Of a stretch of 64,000 bases of DNA, positions 8,130 through 45,274 are shown one piece after another. The translations under genes and the position numbers were made by a program. Positions within the stretch are counted from its first letter, which is position 1, and each line of letters starts with the position of its first letter. The notes below the pieces were generated by a model. That model worked only from the letters and a program-made list of their open reading frames with translations, was not told the origin of the DNA and searched no databases. This DNA comes from an uncultured archaeon (GTDB taxonomy: Archaea > Aenigmatarchaeota > Aenigmatarchaeia > CG10238-14 > SCSR01): assembly GCA_964512235.1 (NCBI GenBank), contig CAZEGD010000001.1, positions 42,874-106,873 on the forward strand, written 5' to 3'.

Positions 8130-8903
8130 TCAAAACATCAGAACAACTAATGCAGAAAATATTAACAGGCTTCCTAGATCCGCTATTGCCGTAGTCAATG
8201 GAATCAAAAAGTTGTTTGGGTCCATCTTCTTCTTATACAAGTACATGCCTACAATGACGGAAACAGAGAATATTATGCCAAACAGAGAAACTGCAGTGAT
8301 GATTGTTATCATTAAGACTTTCACCATTATGCTGCTGCTTGCAGGAAATCCCATCCAGTATGCGAGAATATTTGACATAAAACCGATGAATAGTGATGCG
8401 GCTATTGCTGCGACAAAGAGTATGATAAAAAGCTTTTGTAACTCCCTAGATTTCCACCATCGCTTTGTGACCATGTGGAAGAATAGCATATTTGTGAATT
8501 TTGAAGACGTTATAGTGCCAAAGCTCCCCACCATATCCATGAGAGCAGGCATGACTATGAGCAAAGGCATTATTGTGACAATATTCTCCCTTATGTAAGT
8601 GAGCCTTAGGCCGCCCAACGAGCTAAGTACTGCTGTAAGCACAAGGACTTTCCAACTCTCTTTAATTATTTTCAATGGCACATTAGACTTTGCACTGTAC
8701 TCTTTCATGTAAAAGAGCGTACGGTGCGATATCTTATACTCCCTGTGTATGCGGTGAGCCGTCCGGCTATGCTTGCTGCGTTTGTGTTTTATGACTTTTT
8801 TCAGCTTTCTCTTCAGCCTCTTTCCCGCTCCATCTTTCACTCCATCTATTCTATATAATATGTCATCCATTACTGTCCTTTCAGCCTTTCTCTTCTTTTT
8901 CAT
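8130..8903 (-). CDS. MgtE-type divalent-cation transporter domain protein (with basic N-terminal extension)
   Basis: C-terminal DPNNFLIPLTTAIADLGSLLIFSALVVLMF matches the MgtE/SLC41 membrane-domain signature. Multiple TM segments. Confidence 0.65.
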   Translation of the reverse strand: MKKKRKAERTVMDDILYRIDGVKDGAGKRLKRKLKKVIKHKRSKHSRTAHRIHREYKISHRTLFYMKEYSAKSNVPLKIIKESWKVLVLTAVLSSLGGLRLTYIRENIVTIMPLLIVMPALMDMVGSFGTITSSKFTNMLFFHMVTKRWWKSRELQKLFIILFVAAIAASLFIGFMSNILAYWMGFPASSSIMVKVLMITIITAVSLFGIIFSVSVIVGMYLYKKKMDPNNFLIPLTTAIADLGSLLIFSALVVLMF

Positions 8904-8907
8904 ACAA

Positions 8908-9444
8908 TCACACCAACATTACTGCCGCAAGCAGGGAGAGTATGCTTATTATGTCTCCCGTGACCGTCACATAGGGCCCGATTATGTTGTTCGGGTCGTT
9001 GCCTCGCTTGAAAAAGTAAAATACTGCAAAAACAGTCAAAGGTATGCTTATAGTACTTGACACTACACCAGCTATTACAGCAACGAACACTATCCTTAGT
9101 GAAAATTCACCAAAGACTGCAAAGTTCGCCACAGATGCAATGATACCTAGGCAAGAGCTAACTAGGATTGCAAGGAGGATGGCAGCTATTATGTTACCGT
9201 ATAGGATCCTGCTTTTCTTTATTTCAGGCTTTATTGCACGGACGAACAGTCCAGAAGTCAGCCTTGCTGCCAACGACCCGCTAATGCCGCCACGCATCTC
9301 TAGGAAGCCGGGGAGGAAGATGAATATTGCAGGCAGCAGATAGAGTTTATCTATAGCAGCCGATAACAGCGTACCTGCTATAAGTCCGCCGCATACTGAC
9401 AAGAATTCAGCCGTCAATATTTCCTTCAAAGTCTTGCTTTCCAT
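8908..9444 (-). CDS. MgtE-type divalent-cation transporter domain protein
   Basis: GNDPNNIIGPYVTVTGDIISILSLLAAVMLV. Tandem with 8130-8903, which is the usual paired arrangement of archaeal MgtE-domain genes. Confidence 0.65.
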   Translation of the reverse strand: MESKTLKEILTAEFLSVCGGLIAGTLLSAAIDKLYLLPAIFIFLPGFLEMRGGISGSLAARLTSGLFVRAIKPEIKKSRILYGNIIAAILLAILVSSCLGIIASVANFAVFGEFSLRIVFVAVIAGVVSSTISIPLTVFAVFYFFKRGNDPNNIIGPYVTVTGDIISILSLLAAVMLV

Positions 9445-11944: not shown

Positions 11945-12748
11945 ATGGTTGACTTGAAGTTTGTGACAGATGTCTTTTCTGAAGAGGAGGCAAACGTCAT
12001 TGCAGTTAGGGTCAACTGTCCACAGTCTCTGATAGAAGCCAGTCGGATGGTCGAACCTTTTGACATTGACAGACAAAAGAATCTCTTAGAAGATGTGAAG
12101 ATTTTCGATGCGGGAGAAGCAGACTTAGACGGTGTATATAATGAGATCAAAGAAGTCATTACTGGAAAAAAGATTCCATTGATTCTTGCTGAAAGGCATA
12201 TTGCAAGCTTGGAAGCCATTCGGGCTTTACCAGAGGGTACAAAGATAGTAGTTTTTGATGCACATGCTGATCTGAAGGATGAATATTCAGAAGGCAATTA
12301 CAAACCTGTAGATGAGAAGAGAAATTATGCAACATGGCTTCGCAGAGCTTGTGAGATAATTGACCCGAAGAATGTATGCTTGATTGGAGTTAGATCGTGT
12401 GATGAGGATGAGTTTGAATTTATGAAAGACAGCGGGTTACTTTATTTTACAATTAATGATATTAAGAGTGGTGTGGAAAGCGTTAAGCAACGCCTGCAAA
12501 AATTTATAGGTGATTCATCAGTTTATGTGAGCATAGATATGGATGTATTTGACCCGTCGATTGTACCTGCTGTAGAGAATCCAGAGCCAAACGGTATATT
12601 ATATAGTGACTTTTTGCAGCTGAGTGAAGTCTTGGAGAAGATAATAGGAATAGACTTGGTCGAGATTCGACCATTAGCTAAAAACAGAGTTACAGAGTTC
12701 CTTGCAGTAAAGGTTATATTTAAGCTGTTGTCATTAATTTTTAGTTGA
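11945..12748 (+). CDS. speB: Ureohydrolase family (agmatinase/arginase-like)
   Basis: VVFDAHADLKDEY and YVSIDMDVFDPSIVPAVENPEPNGI are the Mn-binding DAHxD and SxDxDxxDP motifs. Confidence 0.8.
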   Translation: MVDLKFVTDVFSEEEANVIAVRVNCPQSLIEASRMVEPFDIDRQKNLLEDVKIFDAGEADLDGVYNEIKEVITGKKIPLILAERHIASLEAIRALPEGTKIVVFDAHADLKDEYSEGNYKPVDEKRNYATWLRRACEIIDPKNVCLIGVRSCDEDEFEFMKDSGLLYFTINDIKSGVESVKQRLQKFIGDSSVYVSIDMDVFDPSIVPAVENPEPNGILYSDFLQLSEVLEKIIGIDLVEIRPLAKNRVTEFLAVKVIFKLLSLIFS

Positions 12749-12757
12749 TTGTTAAAA

Positions 12758-12843
12758 GCGGGGGTCCGATAGTCTGGTCAATTCGGCTAGCTTGAGGTGC
12801 TAGTGGGTTAGTCCCTACGTGGGTTCAAATCCCACCTCCCGCA
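12758..12843 (+). tRNA. tRNA-Leu (anticodon GAG), type II with long variable arm
   Basis: Acceptor GCGGGGG/CTCCCGC. Anticodon stem CTAGC/GCTAG, loop TTGAGGT. Variable arm TGGGTTAGTCCCTAC. T arm GTGGG-TTCAAAT-CCCAC. Confidence 0.9.
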
Positions 12844-39316: not shown

Positions 39317-39464
39317 AATTACTATATTCTAATAGGATTTTAAAAACGCCGAGGGTGGACGCTGTACAACTTGTACAGAGCCTAAAGTTCGGTGTAAAAT
39401 CAAAAAGAATATTAAATACAGAAAGATAATAAACTTTTTAAATTCAAAATCCACCTTCTTAAAT

Positions 39465-40589
39465 ATGGTGTTCACAACATTAGAAGATGGGAGGATAAAA
39501 TACCAAGGGAATAAGTTATTTCCACCTATCGATGATATAAAAAGTAGAAATTTAGCCGTAGAACATATAGAAAATAGAATACATAGTATAAAAACCAATC
39601 AAATGTGGGAAAAAATAACTCTTATAAATGACATTATCTTCAAATCTACAGTTGACTTTTTCTCTTCTATAGGAGCAAAATTCATTCCTTTACCACTTAC
39701 AACAAAAATGATATCTTCTCCGGGAGCTGTTTATGGAAAGAAAAAAATCAATTATACAACTGATACAAAACCAATAAAGTTAAAATGGTTCAATTTATCT
39801 GAACCTGTCTTTCTGTCAGAATCTTCACAAATATACCTAGAACTTGTTCTTCTACAAAATAATATCGACCATGTTTTTTCTATTTATAACTCTTTTAGGA
39901 AAGAAGAAGCAGATACTACTCACCTATCGGAGTTTCATCATATAGAATACGAAGGACACGTCACACAGGAAAAAAACTTGGAAACGATAGAAAGTCTTGT
40001 GAAAACTATTTTAAAAAATATTCTAAAGAAAAAATATCTTTTAGAGTTTTTCCTAGAAGAAGGGGATATAAGAAATTTGGAAATCCTTGCAAAGGATCAC
40101 TTTATCCAAATAAAATTTAAAGACGTTCTAAGAATGTTATACGAGGAGACAAAAGATGAAAAATACAAGAAATTTACAACTAAGTATTTTGGATTTTGGG
40201 AAGAAGTTAAGATCACAGAAATATTGGGTAATAAAATAGTAGTTATCAAAGAGTTTCCATTATTAGAAACGGCGTTCTACCATGCACCAAAAGTTGTTGA
40301 TGGAGTACAAGTTGCAAACAATGCTGATATAATATGGCCTAGTTATAAGGAATTTGTAGGAAGTGGACAACGTGTAGGAACACTAAAAGAACTGATGAAA
40401 AAAGCAAAATTTTTCACTCTACCAAAAAAAGATTATGAACCATATTTACAATCCAGAAGATACGATGACTATAAAATAAGTTCTGGATTTGGAATGGGCT
40501 GGGAAAGATTATTACAAGGTTTACTTAAAATGCCTACCATAATATCAGTTTGTCACTTTCCAAGAATCCACGATAAAATGATACCCTAA
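39465..40589 (+). CDS. AsnRS/AspRS-like class IIb catalytic core without anticodon-binding domain (AsnA-like)
   Basis: Motif 1 region GAKFIPLPLTT. LSESSQIYLEL. Motif 2 VFSIYNSFRKEEADTTHLSEFHHIEYE. EFVGSGQRVGTLKEL...YEPYLQSRRYDDYKISSGFGMGWERLL parallels the AsnRS pattern GEIIGGSQRE...YWWYLDLRRYG..PHSGFGLGFERL. No OB-fold N-domain. Confidence 0.7.
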   Translation: MVFTTLEDGRIKYQGNKLFPPIDDIKSRNLAVEHIENRIHSIKTNQMWEKITLINDIIFKSTVDFFSSIGAKFIPLPLTTKMISSPGAVYGKKKINYTTDTKPIKLKWFNLSEPVFLSESSQIYLELVLLQNNIDHVFSIYNSFRKEEADTTHLSEFHHIEYEGHVTQEKNLETIESLVKTILKNILKKKYLLEFFLEEGDIRNLEILAKDHFIQIKFKDVLRMLYEETKDEKYKKFTTKYFGFWEEVKITEILGNKIVVIKEFPLLETAFYHAPKVVDGVQVANNADIIWPSYKEFVGSGQRVGTLKELMKKAKFFTLPKKDYEPYLQSRRYDDYKISSGFGMGWERLLQGLLKMPTIISVCHFPRIHDKMIP

Positions 40590-40643
40590 TTAAGTTATTA
40601 TTTTTAACTATCAATTAATTATAATTCAGAGGATGATTATACT

Positions 40644-41684
40644 ATGAAATTGATTAAACCACCTTCATTGCAAAAAGGGGATAGTATAGCTATAGTAGCT
40701 CCCTCTTCTGGTTTAGCTGCTTTATTTCCTCATCGTTTGGAAAGAGCTGTAAAGTTTTTGGAAAAAATTGGTTATAAAATAAAGGTTTTTCCGACAGCTC
40801 GCTCTATAAAGAAATGGAGTTCGGGGAGTCCTAAGGAAAGGGCATGCGATATAAACAATGCATTTGAAGACAATGAGGTTAAAGCTATAATATGTTCCAT
40901 AGGAGGTATAGTCGCGAATCAGACACTCAAATACATTAATTTTGATATTATAAGGAAGAAGCCAAAAATATTTTGCGGGTACTCGGATATCTCAGTTCTA
41001 CATTATGCGTTTCATACAGTCGCCGGTTTAGTCACGTTCTACGGTCCTTGTGCAATGACCCAATTTGGTGAATATCCTGAACCATTAAAATATACAGTAA
41101 ACCACTTTGAAATGGCTGTAGGGAATAACAAACCTATCGGTAGAATAAACCCCTCTGAAAAATGGACAGATGAAGTGTTGGATTGGGCTAACAAGTTAGA
41201 TATTGAAAGACCAAGAGGGCTAAAGACTAACTCAGGATTTCAATGGTTACGTGAGGGTAAGGTTTCTGGCCGTGTAATGGGGGGGTGTATATCTTCTATT
41301 GTACATCTCCGTGGAACCAAATTCTGGCCGAATCAAAAAGACCGAATATTTTTTATAGAAATTTCAGAGGGTCAAGAGTCTTCTAGTGGTGAACCACTCT
41401 CATACGTGGATTCATATCTGACAAATCTTGAAATTTCAGGTGTCTTTCAAGATATAAATGGTCTTATAGTAGGTAGACCCTTCAGGTACACCAATGAAGA
41501 TACAGAGGAATTAAAAAGGATAATTTTAGAACAAACAAAAGAGTACGATTTCCCAATTTTATTTGGTGCGGACATTGGTCATACGGATCCAATGATAACA
41601 ATACCACTAGGAACTAAAGTAGAGTTAGATTCGAACTCTAATAGCTTTGTTTTTCTAGAATCTGGAACATCAAACAACCTTTGA
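40644..41684 (+). CDS. S66-family LD-carboxypeptidase / MccF-like serine peptidase
   Basis: GDSIAIVAPSS. Nucleophile elbow FCGYSDISVLH. C-terminal FGADIGHTDPMITIPLG (Ser-His-Glu family layout). Confidence 0.8.
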   Translation: MKLIKPPSLQKGDSIAIVAPSSGLAALFPHRLERAVKFLEKIGYKIKVFPTARSIKKWSSGSPKERACDINNAFEDNEVKAIICSIGGIVANQTLKYINFDIIRKKPKIFCGYSDISVLHYAFHTVAGLVTFYGPCAMTQFGEYPEPLKYTVNHFEMAVGNNKPIGRINPSEKWTDEVLDWANKLDIERPRGLKTNSGFQWLREGKVSGRVMGGCISSIVHLRGTKFWPNQKDRIFFIEISEGQESSSGEPLSYVDSYLTNLEISGVFQDINGLIVGRPFRYTNEDTEELKRIILEQTKEYDFPILFGADIGHTDPMITIPLGTKVELDSNSNSFVFLESGTSNNL

Positions 41685-41733
41685 CTCATGGGAATAGAAA
41701 GACATTAATCCTTTTGGGTATATGACTTAACTT

Positions 41734-42864
41734 ATGAGAGTTTCGAGTCTAATTGGACACAAAATAAAAACGAGGAAGAAGTTTGATGATCTTGCAGAGC
41801 TTTTGACCAGCAGTTTTTTAGTAGAAACCTCTTTTTTCGACAACGATGGCTACAAAGGCCTTATAAAATTATCCATTGAAAAGTCTGTAGAGAATAATCT
41901 AGAAGCGTTGTTGAAAGAGCTAATGCAGAGAAGTGGAATACAACCAATTGAGTTGCCTACACTTCAACCTTATAATATTTTTGAGACTACTGATAGGATA
42001 GAAAAGTTTGGTAGAGAATTTGTGTCCACTACAGACGATAGGGTAGTTTTTCCCACATCAGAAGAACCCATAATCAACTATCTGGGCCGATTTGCAAACT
42101 TGTCATACAGAGAATTACCGATGTTAGTTTACCAATTTAAAAACTTCTTCAGGGCAACAACTCCGAAAGCCCTTATACGTCTACAAGAGTTTAAAGTACT
42201 TGATATATACAGCTTGAATGAAACTGAGGACTCCCTGAGAGAAACAATAAAAACAATAATAGAACCGATGTTTTTCCAACTGTGGGAAAGGCTAAACCTC
42301 AAAACAATACAACTGAAGAAAGATGAAAACTACATAGACATAAAAGTAAAGACAGCAGAAGGAAATGATACGATACCTAAAACTGGCGAAAGATGTCTAG
42401 GAATTGGCGTAATAATGAACCTTGGCAACAACTATTCAAAAAAATTTGGATTGGGGGTTGCCGATTCTTCTAATAACCTAGTGTATCCGTATCTTGGATC
42501 CTACGCTATAGGGATAGAACGGTTGATTTATGCTATGGTAGACCAAGGAAGAACAAAATCAAAAGGGGTCAACACTATTAAATGGCCTGAAGGAATCGAA
42601 CCTGTAACTTATTATGTTATAAAAATAGGAGAAAGCAATTATGGTGAAAAAATATATAAAGAACTTATTTCTAGAAATAAAAGAGTTCTATTGGATGATA
42701 GTAAAGACACTTTAGGAACAAAATTCGCACGGGCCTATGCCATAGGAGCACCATACATCATTAGTGCTGGCCCAAAAGAAGAGTCTAGAAAGATTGTAGG
42801 TATTGAAGAAAGTTACACAGGTGAGAGATGGGAAATAGAGTTTGATAAACTATTGTGCATGTGA
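41734..42864 (+). CDS. Divergent ProRS-like class IIa paralogue (motif 2 degenerate)
   Basis: LPTLQP, FPTSEEPI, SYRELPMLVYQFKNFFRATTPKALIRLQEFKVLDIYSL (compare YQF..KYRDE..R.GLFRTKEFLMKDAYSF in the next gene), GSYAIGIERL, and a HGTP-type anticodon-binding domain YYVIKIGES...LLDDSKDTLGTKFARAYAIGAPYIISAGPKE. Confidence 0.6.
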   Translation: MRVSSLIGHKIKTRKKFDDLAELLTSSFLVETSFFDNDGYKGLIKLSIEKSVENNLEALLKELMQRSGIQPIELPTLQPYNIFETTDRIEKFGREFVSTTDDRVVFPTSEEPIINYLGRFANLSYRELPMLVYQFKNFFRATTPKALIRLQEFKVLDIYSLNETEDSLRETIKTIIEPMFFQLWERLNLKTIQLKKDENYIDIKVKTAEGNDTIPKTGERCLGIGVIMNLGNNYSKKFGLGVADSSNNLVYPYLGSYAIGIERLIYAMVDQGRTKSKGVNTIKWPEGIEPVTYYVIKIGESNYGEKIYKELISRNKRVLLDDSKDTLGTKFARAYAIGAPYIISAGPKEESRKIVGIEESYTGERWEIEFDKLLCM

Positions 42865-42869
42865 ATACT

Positions 42870-44132
42870 ATGAGAAGGTCACAACTTTTTACACCAACAG
42901 GCAAAGCCGATGAGAGAGAAATGCTTAGTCGAAGTCTGGAATTAAGTTTGAGGGGTGGCTTTGTTCGCCAGACAGGTTCTGGCCTTTATAGTTATACACC
43001 CACAGGTGTCAGGGTTCTTTATAATATATCATCTCTTGTCAGAAAGGAAATGAATAATATTAATGCACAGGAAGTACTTCTTCCATCCTTACAGCCAGCA
43101 GAGTTGTGGAAGGAGAGCGGTAGATGGGAAGTATACAAAGGTAGTATATTTACTATCCAAGATAGCCAAAACAAGAAGTATTGTCTAGCCCCAACATGCG
43201 AAGAAGCCATGGTAGATCTTGTGAGGGGTAATGTCAGATCATATAAGAACTTGCCACTAACCTTATATCAGTTCAGCCAGAAGTATAGGGATGAAAAGGT
43301 AAGACAGGGTCTCTTCAGAACAAAAGAATTCTTAATGAAAGATGCTTATAGCTTCCATTTTAGTGAGGATGACCTCGATAAGACGTATCAGAAGATGAGG
43401 CAGGCATATACTAACATCTTTGAAGAACTAGAACTGGATTTCTTCTTATCTTCAGCCGAGACTGGTGAGATGGGAGGGAAAAGGTCTGAAGAACTTATTG
43501 CCTTGACGGATGTTGGAACAGACAAGTTCGTTGTTTGTTCACAGAAGGAATGTCATTTTGGAAGCCCCATAGATAGTGGTATAAAAGAGTGTTCTATCTG
43601 TGGTAGAGACTTGCAACTGAAAACAGGTATTGAATTAGCTCACTTGTTCAAGTTGGGAGACCGATACAGTAAACAAATGGATCTAACCTTCGCTGACAGA
43701 GATGGTTCGATAAGATATATGGAAATGGGTTGTTATGGGATAGGGATTAGCAGACTAATCCCAACAATAATAGAACAGAACAATGACGAAAAAGGTATAA
43801 TATGGCCAGAAAATGTGGCTCCATTTAAAGAAGTTATTATTCCTACAAGCCAAAAGAAGTCAAATCTCGCTAGACTCTCTAATCAGTTATACTATGAGCT
43901 GAACGAAAAAAGATTAGATCCGTTGTTGGACGATAGAGATGTTTCAGCTGGCACAAAATTTGCTGAATCTGATTTGATGGGGATTCCAAGAAAAATAATT
44001 ATAGGTCCTAAATCCTTGGCCAAAGGTAAGATAGAGGTGGAGCATCGTAGAGGCGGTAAAGATTTTTTAGAAATTGAAAATTTCGTTGCAGAATATATAA
44101 AAAAGTATTATTTAGGACATACAACTGCCTAA
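42870..44132 (+). CDS. proS: Prolyl-tRNA synthetase, bacterial-type architecture without INS editing domain
   Basis: MRRSQLFTPTGK...GSGLYSYTPTGVRVL...LLPSLQPAELWKESGRWEVY...LAPTCEEAM...SYKNLPLTLYQFSQKYRDEKVRQGLFRTKEFLMKDAYSF...MGCYGIGISRL...DDRDVSAGTKFAESDLMGIPRKIIIGPK. The track start 42855 is a GTG 5 codons upstream. Confidence 0.75.
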   Translation: MRRSQLFTPTGKADEREMLSRSLELSLRGGFVRQTGSGLYSYTPTGVRVLYNISSLVRKEMNNINAQEVLLPSLQPAELWKESGRWEVYKGSIFTIQDSQNKKYCLAPTCEEAMVDLVRGNVRSYKNLPLTLYQFSQKYRDEKVRQGLFRTKEFLMKDAYSFHFSEDDLDKTYQKMRQAYTNIFEELELDFFLSSAETGEMGGKRSEELIALTDVGTDKFVVCSQKECHFGSPIDSGIKECSICGRDLQLKTGIELAHLFKLGDRYSKQMDLTFADRDGSIRYMEMGCYGIGISRLIPTIIEQNNDEKGIIWPENVAPFKEVIIPTSQKKSNLARLSNQLYYELNEKRLDPLLDDRDVSAGTKFAESDLMGIPRKIIIGPKSLAKGKIEVEHRRGGKDFLEIENFVAEYIKKYYLGHTTA

Positions 44133-44188
44133 GATGTTGATAAAGTAATAATAAATTTATTGTAAACTTACAAACTCATATTATAGAA

Positions 44189-45013
44189 ATGATAAATATG
44201 TCAAGAGAAATCACACCAGCTAGTATAAAGGACATGTCCTATATAGATTTTATGGCTTTTCTCAATGAGACCAACAAACCGCCAGGAGGAAAGAAATCAC
44301 TAATAGATGTAGCTCAACTATGCTTCTTGAATAAGGACAAGAAAGTTCTTCATGTAGGTTGTAGTACTGGATATTCGACCTTTGAACTTAACCGATTAAC
44401 AGGTTGTAAAATAGTAGGGATAGACATCAGTTCCAACATGATTAAAAGAGCCAATGAGAAAAGAGAGAAAGATATGAATAGAACCAATGTAACATTTCGA
44501 GTTGCCGATGCCACAAAATTTCCTTTCGAGGACAATACATTCGATGTTGTGTTTTCGGCGGGTGCTACAGCTTTCTTTGAGGACATACAAAAAGGAGTAG
44601 CTGAATGCAAACGTGTTGTTAAACCATGGGGCTTCATGGTCGATGTAAACTTCTATTATAAGAAAGACCCACCGCAGAGTTTGATAGATGAATTGAATAA
44701 GACTATGGATATCCACATAAAAAAACGGAGTAAGGAAGATTGGATAAGAATATACGAAGATGCCGACCTGGATGTTTATTATATTAAAGATGGAAAAACA
44801 AAAACTGTTACGAAAGAGCAAATAGAAGAATACGCAGAAAAAACCGCTAGGAGAGTGACCTCTGGTTCAGAAATCATAAAAACGATAAAGGAAAAACTGA
44901 TACCCATAATGGAGCTTTTCAATAGAAACAATGAGTACTTAGCATACTCGATATTCATCTTTCGCAAGCACCCTGACGAAGAGCCTAAAGATATCTACTT
45001 GTTTGAACCTTAA
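44189..45013 (+). CDS. Class I SAM-dependent methyltransferase
   Basis: Motif I VLHVGCSTGYST. GIDISSNMIKRANEK. FDVVFSAGA. Confidence 0.7.
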   Translation: MINMSREITPASIKDMSYIDFMAFLNETNKPPGGKKSLIDVAQLCFLNKDKKVLHVGCSTGYSTFELNRLTGCKIVGIDISSNMIKRANEKREKDMNRTNVTFRVADATKFPFEDNTFDVVFSAGATAFFEDIQKGVAECKRVVKPWGFMVDVNFYYKKDPPQSLIDELNKTMDIHIKKRSKEDWIRIYEDADLDVYYIKDGKTKTVTKEQIEEYAEKTARRVTSGSEIIKTIKEKLIPIMELFNRNNEYLAYSIFIFRKHPDEEPKDIYLFEP

Positions 45014-45132
45014 CCAAATATTTTTCAAGAATACAATTAGTTCAACGCCTACTCAACATTCTATTTCCAATTTTCAAAAAATTGAGCTAGATGCTGATTT
45101 GACAGCAAAAACTAAAGAATTGAAAAATTCTA

Positions 45133-45215
45133 CGCCGAGGGTGGGATTTGAACCCACATGGGCAAAGCCCGCTGGTTTTCAAGACCAGTGCACCACCTGG
45201 TTATGCGACCTCGGC
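45133..45215 (-). tRNA. tRNA-Ser (anticodon UGA), type II
   Basis: Acceptor GCCGAGG/CCTCGGC, discriminator G. Anticodon stem CTGGT/ACCAG, loop CTTGAAA. Long variable arm CGGGCTTTGCCCAT. T arm GTGGG-TTCAAAT-CCCAC. Confidence 0.9.
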
Positions 45216-45274
45216 ATACCTAAAGAATAATTCATAGAAATAAGATATAAAAGTACTCTCCCAATCCAATGAGC

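Follow-up and report, generated by a model that had tools for sequence, protein, structure and literature searches.

The natural mimics of aminoacyl-adenylates known to us, microcin C, agrocin 84 and albomycin, are few, all bacterial and prized as leads against tRNA synthetases, and we know of no solved route to the phosphoramidate of agrocin 84. Here, we describe a gene for a serine peptidase of family S66, together with the cassette of five genes in which it lies, in a stretch of 64,000 nucleotides (the window) from contig CAZEGD010000001.1 of an uncultured archaeon of the Aenigmatarchaeota. By sequence, the closest known relatives of this cassette are the clusters for agrocin 84 (agn) and microcin C (mcc) and, from the analysis of the locus as a whole, we lean slightly towards regarding the S66 enzyme as a self-immunity hydrolase of an aminoacyl-phosphoramidate nucleotide that the cassette itself would make.

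The agn cluster comprises 17 genes, including an exporter, a leucyl-tRNA synthetase (LeuRS) and tailoring enzymes (PMC8323819). AgnA is a truncated asparaginyl-tRNA synthetase (AsnRS) without anticodon domain and has been proposed to form the phosphoramidate bond (PMC8323819, PMC4392301), and AgnB1 is treated in review only as the S-adenosylmethionine (SAM) enzyme of pentanamide synthesis, with no link to MccD (PMC8323819). MccD transfers the 3-amino-3-carboxypropyl group of SAM to the phosphate of the peptidyl-nucleotide (PMC8323819/PMC4392301). The hydrolases that give immunity to microcin C belong to three families, HIT (MccH), S51 (MccG) and S66 (MccF) (PMC8323819 and others); of MccH and MccG, one cuts the N-P bond and the other the carboxamide bond, HIT enzymes being the N-P cutters. 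Both MccF and the stand-alone MccF of Bacillus anthracis are resistance enzymes (PMC8323819).

The S66 protein within the MccF branch

The S66 gene is the open reading frame (ORF) 40644-41684 (+), with an ATG start and 346 amino acids (aa). Its product matches Pfam Peptidase_S66 (PF02016) over residues 15-134 (E 3.7e-37, 127.6 bits against a cut-off of 25) and Peptidase_S66C (PF17676) over residues 208-328 (E 1.7e-28, 100.1 bits against a cut-off of 23.7), and it contains the motifs GDSIAIVAPSS (12-22), CGYSDISVLH (111-120) and GADIGHTDP (308-316), so that the S66 layout which the original prediction had read in the letters is borne out by both domains and all three motifs. In an AlphaFold2 model built with 55 homologues (predicted local distance difference test 96.7, predicted template modelling score 0.94), strand 14-18 and the nucleophile elbow, formed by strand 109-112, Ser114 and helix 114-127, fall at these motifs. 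The genome has no second S66 gene; its assembly counts 677 kb in 16 contigs and is 89% complete. Homologues in public records carry the names Pacearchaeota, Woesearchaeota or Nanoarchaeota, which places the organism among the DPANN archaea. The protein is an S66 peptidase with a triad predicted, from alignments, as Ser114/Glu239/His313. The residues concerned, and the loop discussed below, are encoded as follows:

40983..40985 (+), codon of Ser114, the predicted nucleophile (GYS114D), aligned to S118 of Escherichia coli MccF and S116 of the B. anthracis protein BA3275
41151..41216 (+), insertion loop of residues 170-191 with W174 and W181, from alignments to MccF and LdcA
41358..41360 (+), codon of Glu239, the predicted triad acid (FIE239), aligned to E243 of E. 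coli MccF and E243 of BA3275
41580..41582 (+), codon of His313, the predicted triad base (GH313TD), aligned to H311 of E. coli MccF and H313 of BA3275

His313 is invariant across all alignments, and both S118 of MccF and S116 of BA3275 have been mutated in crystallised inactive forms. The E. coli MccF sequence used is that of plasmid MccC7-H22, the numbering of which fits S118, W186, E243 and H311.

On sequence and structural model alike, the protein is placed in the MccF branch of the family and not in the LdcA branch. Its best solved relatives in a search of PDB sequences are BA3275 (1e-64), BA_5613 (7e-59), B. anthracis MccF (4e-46) and E. coli MccF (1e-43), LdcA proteins being found only at E 1e-17 to 1e-9; with the NCBIfam equivalog for LdcA (NF008424), it scores 92.4 bits against a cut-off of 378. 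The top Foldseek match of the model is again BA3275, one entry of which is an S116A form with AMP bound, at a template modelling score (TM) of 0.91 and a root mean square deviation (rmsd) of 1.9 Å; MccF complexes are matched at TM 0.90-0.91 and rmsd of about 2 Å, and all LdcA structures at TM 0.69-0.75 and rmsd of 3-5 Å. In a maximum-likelihood tree, LdcA, then E. coli MccF, then the branch of AgnC5, the S66 protein of an agrocin-type plasmid described below, fall outside a clade with support 93/92; this clade holds archaeal and bacterial S66 proteins of related cassettes, BA3275 and orphans. The deep order in this tree is uncertain owing to long branches.

The original prediction had preferred an MccF-like to an LdcA-like assignment, which these TM values support, and had proposed a comparison of the nucleotide-binding loop of MccF, which gave the same answer: the loop is present in the window protein, and about 25-30 residues are missing from E. 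coli LdcA where the MccF loop with its two Trp residues sits. In this inter-domain loop, 'PSEKW174TDEVLDW181' of the window protein is aligned with 'PEKW179SDESINW186' of E. coli MccF, the W186 of which stacks on the adenine of processed microcin C (PMC8323819). W181 is the equivalent of W186 and is invariant in all MccF-branch sequences of the alignments. The MccF mutants W186F, W180A and S118A/N220A/K247A are named in PDB entry titles, 3TLZ, 3SR3 and 3TLY among them. In B. anthracis MccF, we take the adenine-stacking Trp to be W180.

The acyl side of the pocket is different. E. coli MccF has N220, R246 and K247 where the window protein has S217, E242 and G243, and these three residues of MccF are presumably its Asp/Glu-selecting pocket, an assumption for which the title of entry 3TLY served as the only check. 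E242 is nearly invariant in the sub-clade of the window protein and in AgnC5, and seven residues are inserted after the triad Glu relative to MccF. Judging from these residues, specificity for Asp- or Glu-nucleotides is unlikely and, since the specificity residues of MccF are not conserved, the substrate would not be processed microcin C itself.

The five-gene cassette and its kin

The cassette consists of five genes on the same strand, with intergenic gaps of 54, 49, -10 and 56 bp. The genes and the borders are the following, a prolyl-tRNA synthetase being abbreviated as ProRS:

39346..39358 (+), left copy of a 13-nt direct repeat, ACGCCGAGGGTGG, an att-like border of the cassette (exact repeat search)
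39465..40589 (+), AgnA-like catalytic core of a class IIb aminoacyl-tRNA synthetase, 374 aa, without anticodon-binding domain (Pfam tRNA-synt_2 only)
40644..41684 (+), 346-aa serine hydrolase of family S66, MccF/AgnC5 branch (both S66 domains of Pfam, N and C)
41734..42864 (+), divergent ProRS-like class IIa paralogue, 376 aa, here ProRS-like376 (Pfam tRNA-synt_2b and HGTP_anticodon)
42855..44132 (+), extra ProRS of bacterial type, 425 aa and lacking the INS editing domain, here ProRS425 (TIGR00409 proS_fam_II, 473 bits against a cut-off of 306.7)
44189..45013 (+), class I SAM-dependent transferase of the AgnB1/MccD family, 274 aa (similarity to AgnB1 and MccD)
45132..45216 (-), tRNA-Ser(UGA), the 3' end of which (45132-45144) is the right copy of the 13-nt repeat (ARAGORN and repeat search)

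The S66 gene thus lies between synthetase paralogues, as first described, with the AsnRS-like core upstream and two ProRS-type genes downstream on the same strand. The AgnA-like core scores under the cut-offs of the AsnRS and AsnA equivalogs, its nearest solved structures are AsnRS cores, and it keeps the AsnRS-type GSGQR segment. ProRS-like376 is far under all ProRS cut-offs and keeps the arginines of motifs 2 and 3; it has one close homologue among 5.8 billion proteins and is homologous to ProRS-like genes in other cassettes. ProRS425 is supernumerary because contig C4 of the same genome carries a second, canonical archaeal ProRS (TIGR00408, 517 bits against a cut-off of 437), and it is a candidate for a resistant copy of the target.

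The 13-nt repeat is found exactly twice in the window, where none is expected (100 shuffles), and its copies enclose a span of 5.8 kb (39359-45131) with a GC content of 35.2%, against 41.0% for the genome. From this low GC and the repeats of the tRNA-Ser 3' end at its borders, the cassette is judged to be mobile. No integrase gene is present in the cassette of the window; related cassettes at two other loci (L035 and L051) have integrase genes alongside. Within the order of the window genome, the closest AgnA-like gene, from a genome of the same family (G095:C18:6983-8077), has 60% identity and two stop codons (TAG and TAA), which suggests, on its sequence, a decaying copy of the cassette.

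The link to agrocin 84 rests on a 44,420-bp Agrobacterium plasmid, which tblastn searches of plasmids with the S66 protein matched at 38% identity. Its gene order runs from 'asparagine synthetase A' through a methyltransferase, leuS, a 420-bp ORF, a 411-aa hypothetical protein, an SDR, a methyltransferase and an amidohydrolase to the S66 gene, a PhyH dioxygenase and a radical SAM gene, which fits the published order agnA, agnB1, agnB2, agnC0-C7 (PMC8323819, PMC4392301). We infer the name AgnC5 for the S66 protein of this pAgK84-type plasmid (NZ_CP048501.1, 22150-23208) from this order and from the description in the review. AgnC5 is 38% identical to the window protein over 330 residues (E 9e-78), and AgnA is 26% identical to the AsnRS-like core (E 2e-23). 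The methyltransferase of the window is 30% identical to AgnB1 over its full length (E 7e-49) and 34% identical to E. coli MccD (E 4e-30); AgnB1 (L021:29676-30497) and MccD (L022:9810-10613) are themselves full-length homologues (28% identity, E 5e-29), and AgnB1 may, by this resemblance, act on the phosphate of the phosphoramidate as MccD does. By the homologies to AgnA, AgnB1/MccD and AgnC5, three of the five genes of the cassette therefore have homologues in clusters for non-hydrolysable aminoacyl-adenylate mimics.

The remaining parts of the two known systems were looked for with less success. No MccB (ThiF-like) gene is found among the five genes by Pfam scan, and no small ORF ending in Asn, as expected of an MccA-like precursor peptide, in the intergenic gaps of the cassette. 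AgnC1 shows no similarity to a 405-aa gene of L019 or to a 659-aa gene of the Natrinema cluster described below, AgnC6 matches the PhyH of L035 only at E 2e-4 over 72 residues, and AgnC7 has no similarity to the radical SAM of L038.

Recurrence of the cassette in other genomes

Close homologues of the S66 protein, at 38-63% identity, were sampled in 18 species genomes, one representative per GTDB species (loci and genomes carry our own L and G labels). An AgnA-like gene lies within 6 kb of the S66 gene in 9 of the 18, is on another short contig in 2 and is absent from the assembly in 7, such absence being weak evidence in incomplete metagenome-assembled genomes (MAGs). The hosts are Woesearchaeota, Nanoarchaeia, Saccharibacteria, other Patescibacteria and MAGs labelled Gamma- or Deltaproteobacteria, some of these labels being possibly wrong, for example in 'Gammaproteobacteria' genomes of about 1 Mb. 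The AgnA-like family as such counts 590 or more protein clusters at 90% identity (E of 1e-40 or lower), with lengths of about 376-378 aa and, in four long AgnA-like contigs picked without regard to S66, a methyltransferase is adjacent in all four and an S66 gene is present in three. The neighbours are not a product of chance. The linkage of the S66 gene to the AgnA-like core and the methyltransferase recurs in archaea and bacteria. The best metagenomic homologues of the S66 protein reach 61-63% identity (L016, L018 and L019); the gene content of these and other loci is as follows:

L016, radical-SAM/SPASM genes and methyltransferases; no synthetase
L018, in this order, AgnA-like gene, LysRS-like gene (the partner), methyltransferase and radical SAM gene; S66 convergent
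L019, AgnA-like gene, methyltransferase, ProRS-like gene and PNP-like gene; S66 convergent
Window, L019, L038, L045, L048 and L051, ProRS-like paralogues as partner genes
L030, catalytic fragment of an AlaRS as partner
L031, cassette flanked by a complete non-discriminating AspRS of archaeal type (498 bits, cut-off 353) and by a second, divergent gene like Asp/AsnRS; SAM decarboxylase adjoining the MccD-like gene
L035, PhyH, kinase-like gene, glycosyltransferase and integrase as partners

A constant core with variable tailoring genes and extra synthetases is the usual pattern of a family of biosynthetic gene clusters with self-resistance genes. The core trio is also carried by the cultured Natrinema sp. 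J7-2 (CP003412.1, 594763-615890; L047) and by a second assembly (L046). The Natrinema cluster contains a methyltransferase, a full LeuRS with editing domain, an AgnA-like gene, a two-gene ABC exporter and an S66 gene, the product of which is 42% identical to that of the window (E 1e-103). Divergent duplicates of LeuRS genes in Halobacteriales have been considered as potential copies for antibiotic resistance (PMC3436685).

In the phylum of the window genome, 23 of 371 sampled genomes carry an S66 gene, and an AgnA-like core adjoins it in G270, G194 and G387. Within the order of the window genome, S66 genes reach at most 46% identity, except for the cut or partial ones of G115 and G042 at about 50%, and no AgnA-like gene turned up beside any of them when the order was searched for it; the distant S66 genes of G033 and G001, the neighbourhoods of which were both examined, stand among housekeeping genes. 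Since the S66 genes of the order at 46% identity or less are not linked to an AgnA-like gene, the linkage holds for the close sub-clade only. The concern raised with the original prediction, that archaeal homologues might prove to have unrelated neighbours, is therefore dispelled for the close homologues, about half of which have an AgnA-like core within 6 kb, and stands for the distant S66 genes of DPANN archaea.

These distant DPANN genes agree with another explanation, in which the enzyme would be a housekeeping, LdcA-like carboxypeptidase acting on some peptide and its synthetase neighbours would have no functional meaning; S66 genes also exist in other archaea, such as Haloferax in the control set, and for most proteins of the MccF clade no native substrate has been established. 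We regard this explanation as highly improbable, however, given the score far under the LdcA cut-off, the presence of the MccF loop that LdcA lacks and the conservation, across two domains of life, of the linkage of S66 to the AgnA-like gene and the methyltransferase. Moreover, archaea are devoid of murein and hence make no murein tetrapeptide, the substrate of LdcA.

Some loci show further variation. In a MAG with a proteobacterial label, a small S-adenosylmethionine decarboxylase gene (L031:11029-11397) lies between the S66 and the MccD-like gene, which suggests, by analogy, an aminopropyl (decarboxylated-SAM) chemistry like that of the MccD/MccE1 pair. Among DPANN S66 genes that stand alone or are placed differently, those of L042, L043, L016 and L019 adjoin a short methyltransferase of class I (147-214 aa) outside the AgnB1/MccD type, a combination that may be a second, unrelated S66 module; radical-SAM/SPASM genes are nearby in L016 and L019. 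Two adjacent NUDIX genes follow the S66 gene in L051 (13984-15182), and two NUDIX genes lie beside the ABC transporter of the pAgK84-type plasmid (L021:36587-37528).

The role of the S66 hydrolase and comparison with known systems

Taking together the fold, the triad, the MccF loop, the agn and mcc homologies, the extra ProRS, the mobility signature and the recurrent synteny, we infer the following chemical steps, product and immunity role. The AgnA-like core would use ATP and an amino-acid-like substrate to form a non-hydrolysable mimic of an aminoacyl-adenylate, an N-acyl phosphoramidate of adenosine, which is the type of warhead of agrocin 84 and processed microcin C. The AgnB1/MccD-like SAM enzyme would decorate this mimic, ProRS-like376 would help to set or attach the acyl group, and, should the housekeeping ProRS be inhibited by the compound, ProRS425 would maintain the charging of tRNA-Pro. 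The S66 protein would be a cytoplasmic serine hydrolase of the MccF type and the detoxifying part of the mobile cassette: with the adenine stacked on W181, Ser114, His313 and Glu239 would cut the carboxamide bond at the nitrogen of the acyl-phosphoramidate, releasing a harmless amino acid and adenosine phosphoramidate.

A role in immunity finds support in the other hydrolases of such cassettes. At L050, a gene for a HIT-family hydrolase (8495-9004) runs into the start of the AgnA-like gene, with no S66 gene inside 9 kb; at L051, an S51 peptidase gene (12148-12834) lies between the methyltransferase and the S66 gene. All three families of microcin C immunity hydrolases are thus found in these cassettes, with HIT replacing S66 once, which would be difficult to account for if the product were anything but a phosphoramidate-linked aminoacyl-nucleotide that they detoxify. 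In addition, some close homologues of the S66 protein have no AgnA-like gene and stand as orphans, like stand-alone MccF, and in several cassettes the S66 gene is convergent to the other genes, as is E. coli mccF.

At a distance of 3-7 kb, L050 also carries three genes of TyrRS/TrpRS type (tRNA-synt_1b). One orphan S66 gene, 55% identical to that of the window (L044:4893-5474, in G198), stands in a row of AspRS, HAD, GNAT acetyltransferase, GatB and S66. Acetylation by GNAT enzymes (MccE2) is another mechanism of immunity to microcin C, and L044 may, by analogy, be a locus for resistance only.

Several observations weigh against the immunity role. In the alignment, the pocket positions of the S66 proteins show no co-variation with the kind of synthetase that is the partner (Pro-, Asp/Asn-, Lys- or Ala-like), as might be expected of an immunity enzyme matched to a variable acyl group; the residues of the acyl pocket of MccF are not kept. 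The S66 gene is almost always present in the cassettes, which we count in favour of biosynthesis, and only agnB2 and agnG have been published as immunity genes of the agn cluster, agnC5 being in the biosynthetic agnC operon (PMC8323819). Homology between AgnC1 and ProRS-like376 could not be shown, either by BLASTP, which found nothing, or by hhalign, which gave a probability of 2.5% with a profile of four sequences. The Pfam analysis of the five genes found neither an exporter (AgnG) nor genes for an uptake moiety. Finally, the literature that we covered holds no biochemical characterisation of enzymes of the cassette family, AgnA and AgnC5 included, and describes no product.

The constancy of the S66 gene would be accounted for if the enzyme were needed to make the compound rather than to destroy it. 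The AgnA-like core, which is closest to AsnRS and keeps the GSGQR segment, would then make the (iso)asparaginyl-phosphoramidate of adenosine from Asn and ATP, in the way that MccB acts on a peptide; S66 would strip the aspartyl part to leave adenosine 5'-phosphoramidate, and ProRS-like376 would re-acylate this with its own amino acid. The known MccF reaction does yield adenosine phosphoramidate, S66, AgnA-like core and MccD-like enzyme are constant where the second synthetase-like gene varies (ProRS-, Asp/AsnRS-, LysRS- or AlaRS-like), the pocket does not follow the partner synthetase, and AgnC5 belongs to the agnC operon. We consider this route unlikely nonetheless: the HIT hydrolase that replaces S66 in L050 is of a family of N-P cutters, which would destroy the intermediate and not produce it, some close S66 homologues are orphans that lack an AgnA-like gene, a second truncated paralogue of a synthetase is absent from the Natrinema cluster, and the Asp-binding residues of MccF are not kept. 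A broader version, in which the constant trio would be a general, peptide-free route to adenosine 5'-phosphoramidate with S66 as the amidase and a swappable, degenerate synthetase paralogue would re-acylate the product, strikes us as slightly less likely still. If true, it would be a re-targetable platform for adenylate mimics against any tRNA synthetase, carried on small mobile islands of ultra-small archaea and bacteria, and its products might be used against the hosts of these organisms.

The absence of an exporter and of a precursor-peptide ORF raises, together with the low-GC island at a tRNA gene, another alternative, namely that no toxin is made at all and that the S66 hydrolase, a bypass ProRS and a modifying methyltransferase protect against aminoacyl-nucleotide antibiotics from neighbours or host, much as stand-alone MccF homologues confer resistance in bacteria (PMC8323819). 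We hold this to be very unlikely, since the AgnA and MccD homologues, which are biosynthetic in both known systems, are the genes most tightly linked to S66, and it is hard to see what an adenylate-forming synthetase core would do for resistance. The reading that we favour remains self-immunity within a cassette that makes its own inhibitor.

S66, MccF, MccD, AgnA and AgnB2 are already known, and what is new with respect to the literature is an archaeal relative of the agn and mcc systems that would be built by synthetases and without a peptide, its probable target being ProRS. A review of Trojan-horse inhibitors of aminoacyl-tRNA synthetases places agn-like clusters only in one Ensifer strain and some Actinobacteria and does not mention archaea (PMC8323819). 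A full-text literature search found no paper naming MccF together with DPANN, archaea or Patescibacteria. If our reading is true, this would be, to our knowledge, the first candidate pathway for an aminoacyl-tRNA synthetase inhibitor in Archaea, and it would give a reason why genome-reduced organisms of the DPANN and of the candidate phyla radiation keep 'spare' synthetase genes. A compact archaeal cassette with homologues of AgnA, AgnB1/MccD and AgnC5 would be a minimal system for phosphoramidate chemistry, with the version of Natrinema sp. J7-2 as a cultured, tractable model, and the S66 enzyme is predicted to be a hydrolase for aminoacyl-nucleotides other than those of Asp and Glu, hence a new resistance determinant.

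Among single proteins, the window enzyme shares with E. coli MccF (3TLA-3TLZ) and B. anthracis MccF (3GJZ) the S66 fold, the triad (S118/E243/H311 of the former corresponding to S114/E239/H313), the Trp residue (W186 to W181) and a neighbouring gene of the MccD family, but the identity is only 28-30%. BA3275, a 'member of MccF family' (5F9M, 5F5X, 5F1Y and 5JYB) for which the literature gave no function or substrate, is closer, at 37-38%. LdcA (5Z01 of E. coli, 1ZRS of Pseudomonas aeruginosa) has the same family and the same Ser-His-Glu triad; it differs in its identity of 19-25% and in lacking the loop with two Trp residues. AgnC5 shares the triad, the Trp loop and the Glu at the position of MccF R246, whereas it branches outside the clade of the window protein.

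At the level of clusters, the mcc system resembles the cassette in the pairing of an MccD-family transferase with an MccF-family hydrolase (S66 against MccF, E 1e-43 and TM 0.91) and differs from it in MccA and MccB, which have no counterpart in the cassette. The agn cluster is similar in its AsnRS-like core without anticodon domain, its AgnB1 methyltransferase and its extra synthetase, but it has 17 genes with a LeuRS and an exporter, against five genes with ProRS-type synthetases and no exporter in the cassette of the window. ProRS425 would take the structural part of the agn LeuRS, AgnB2, with specificity for Pro and not for Leu. The Natrinema layout closely resembles agnA/agnB1/agnB2/agnG/agnC5 and is the most agrocin-84-like among the loci seen.

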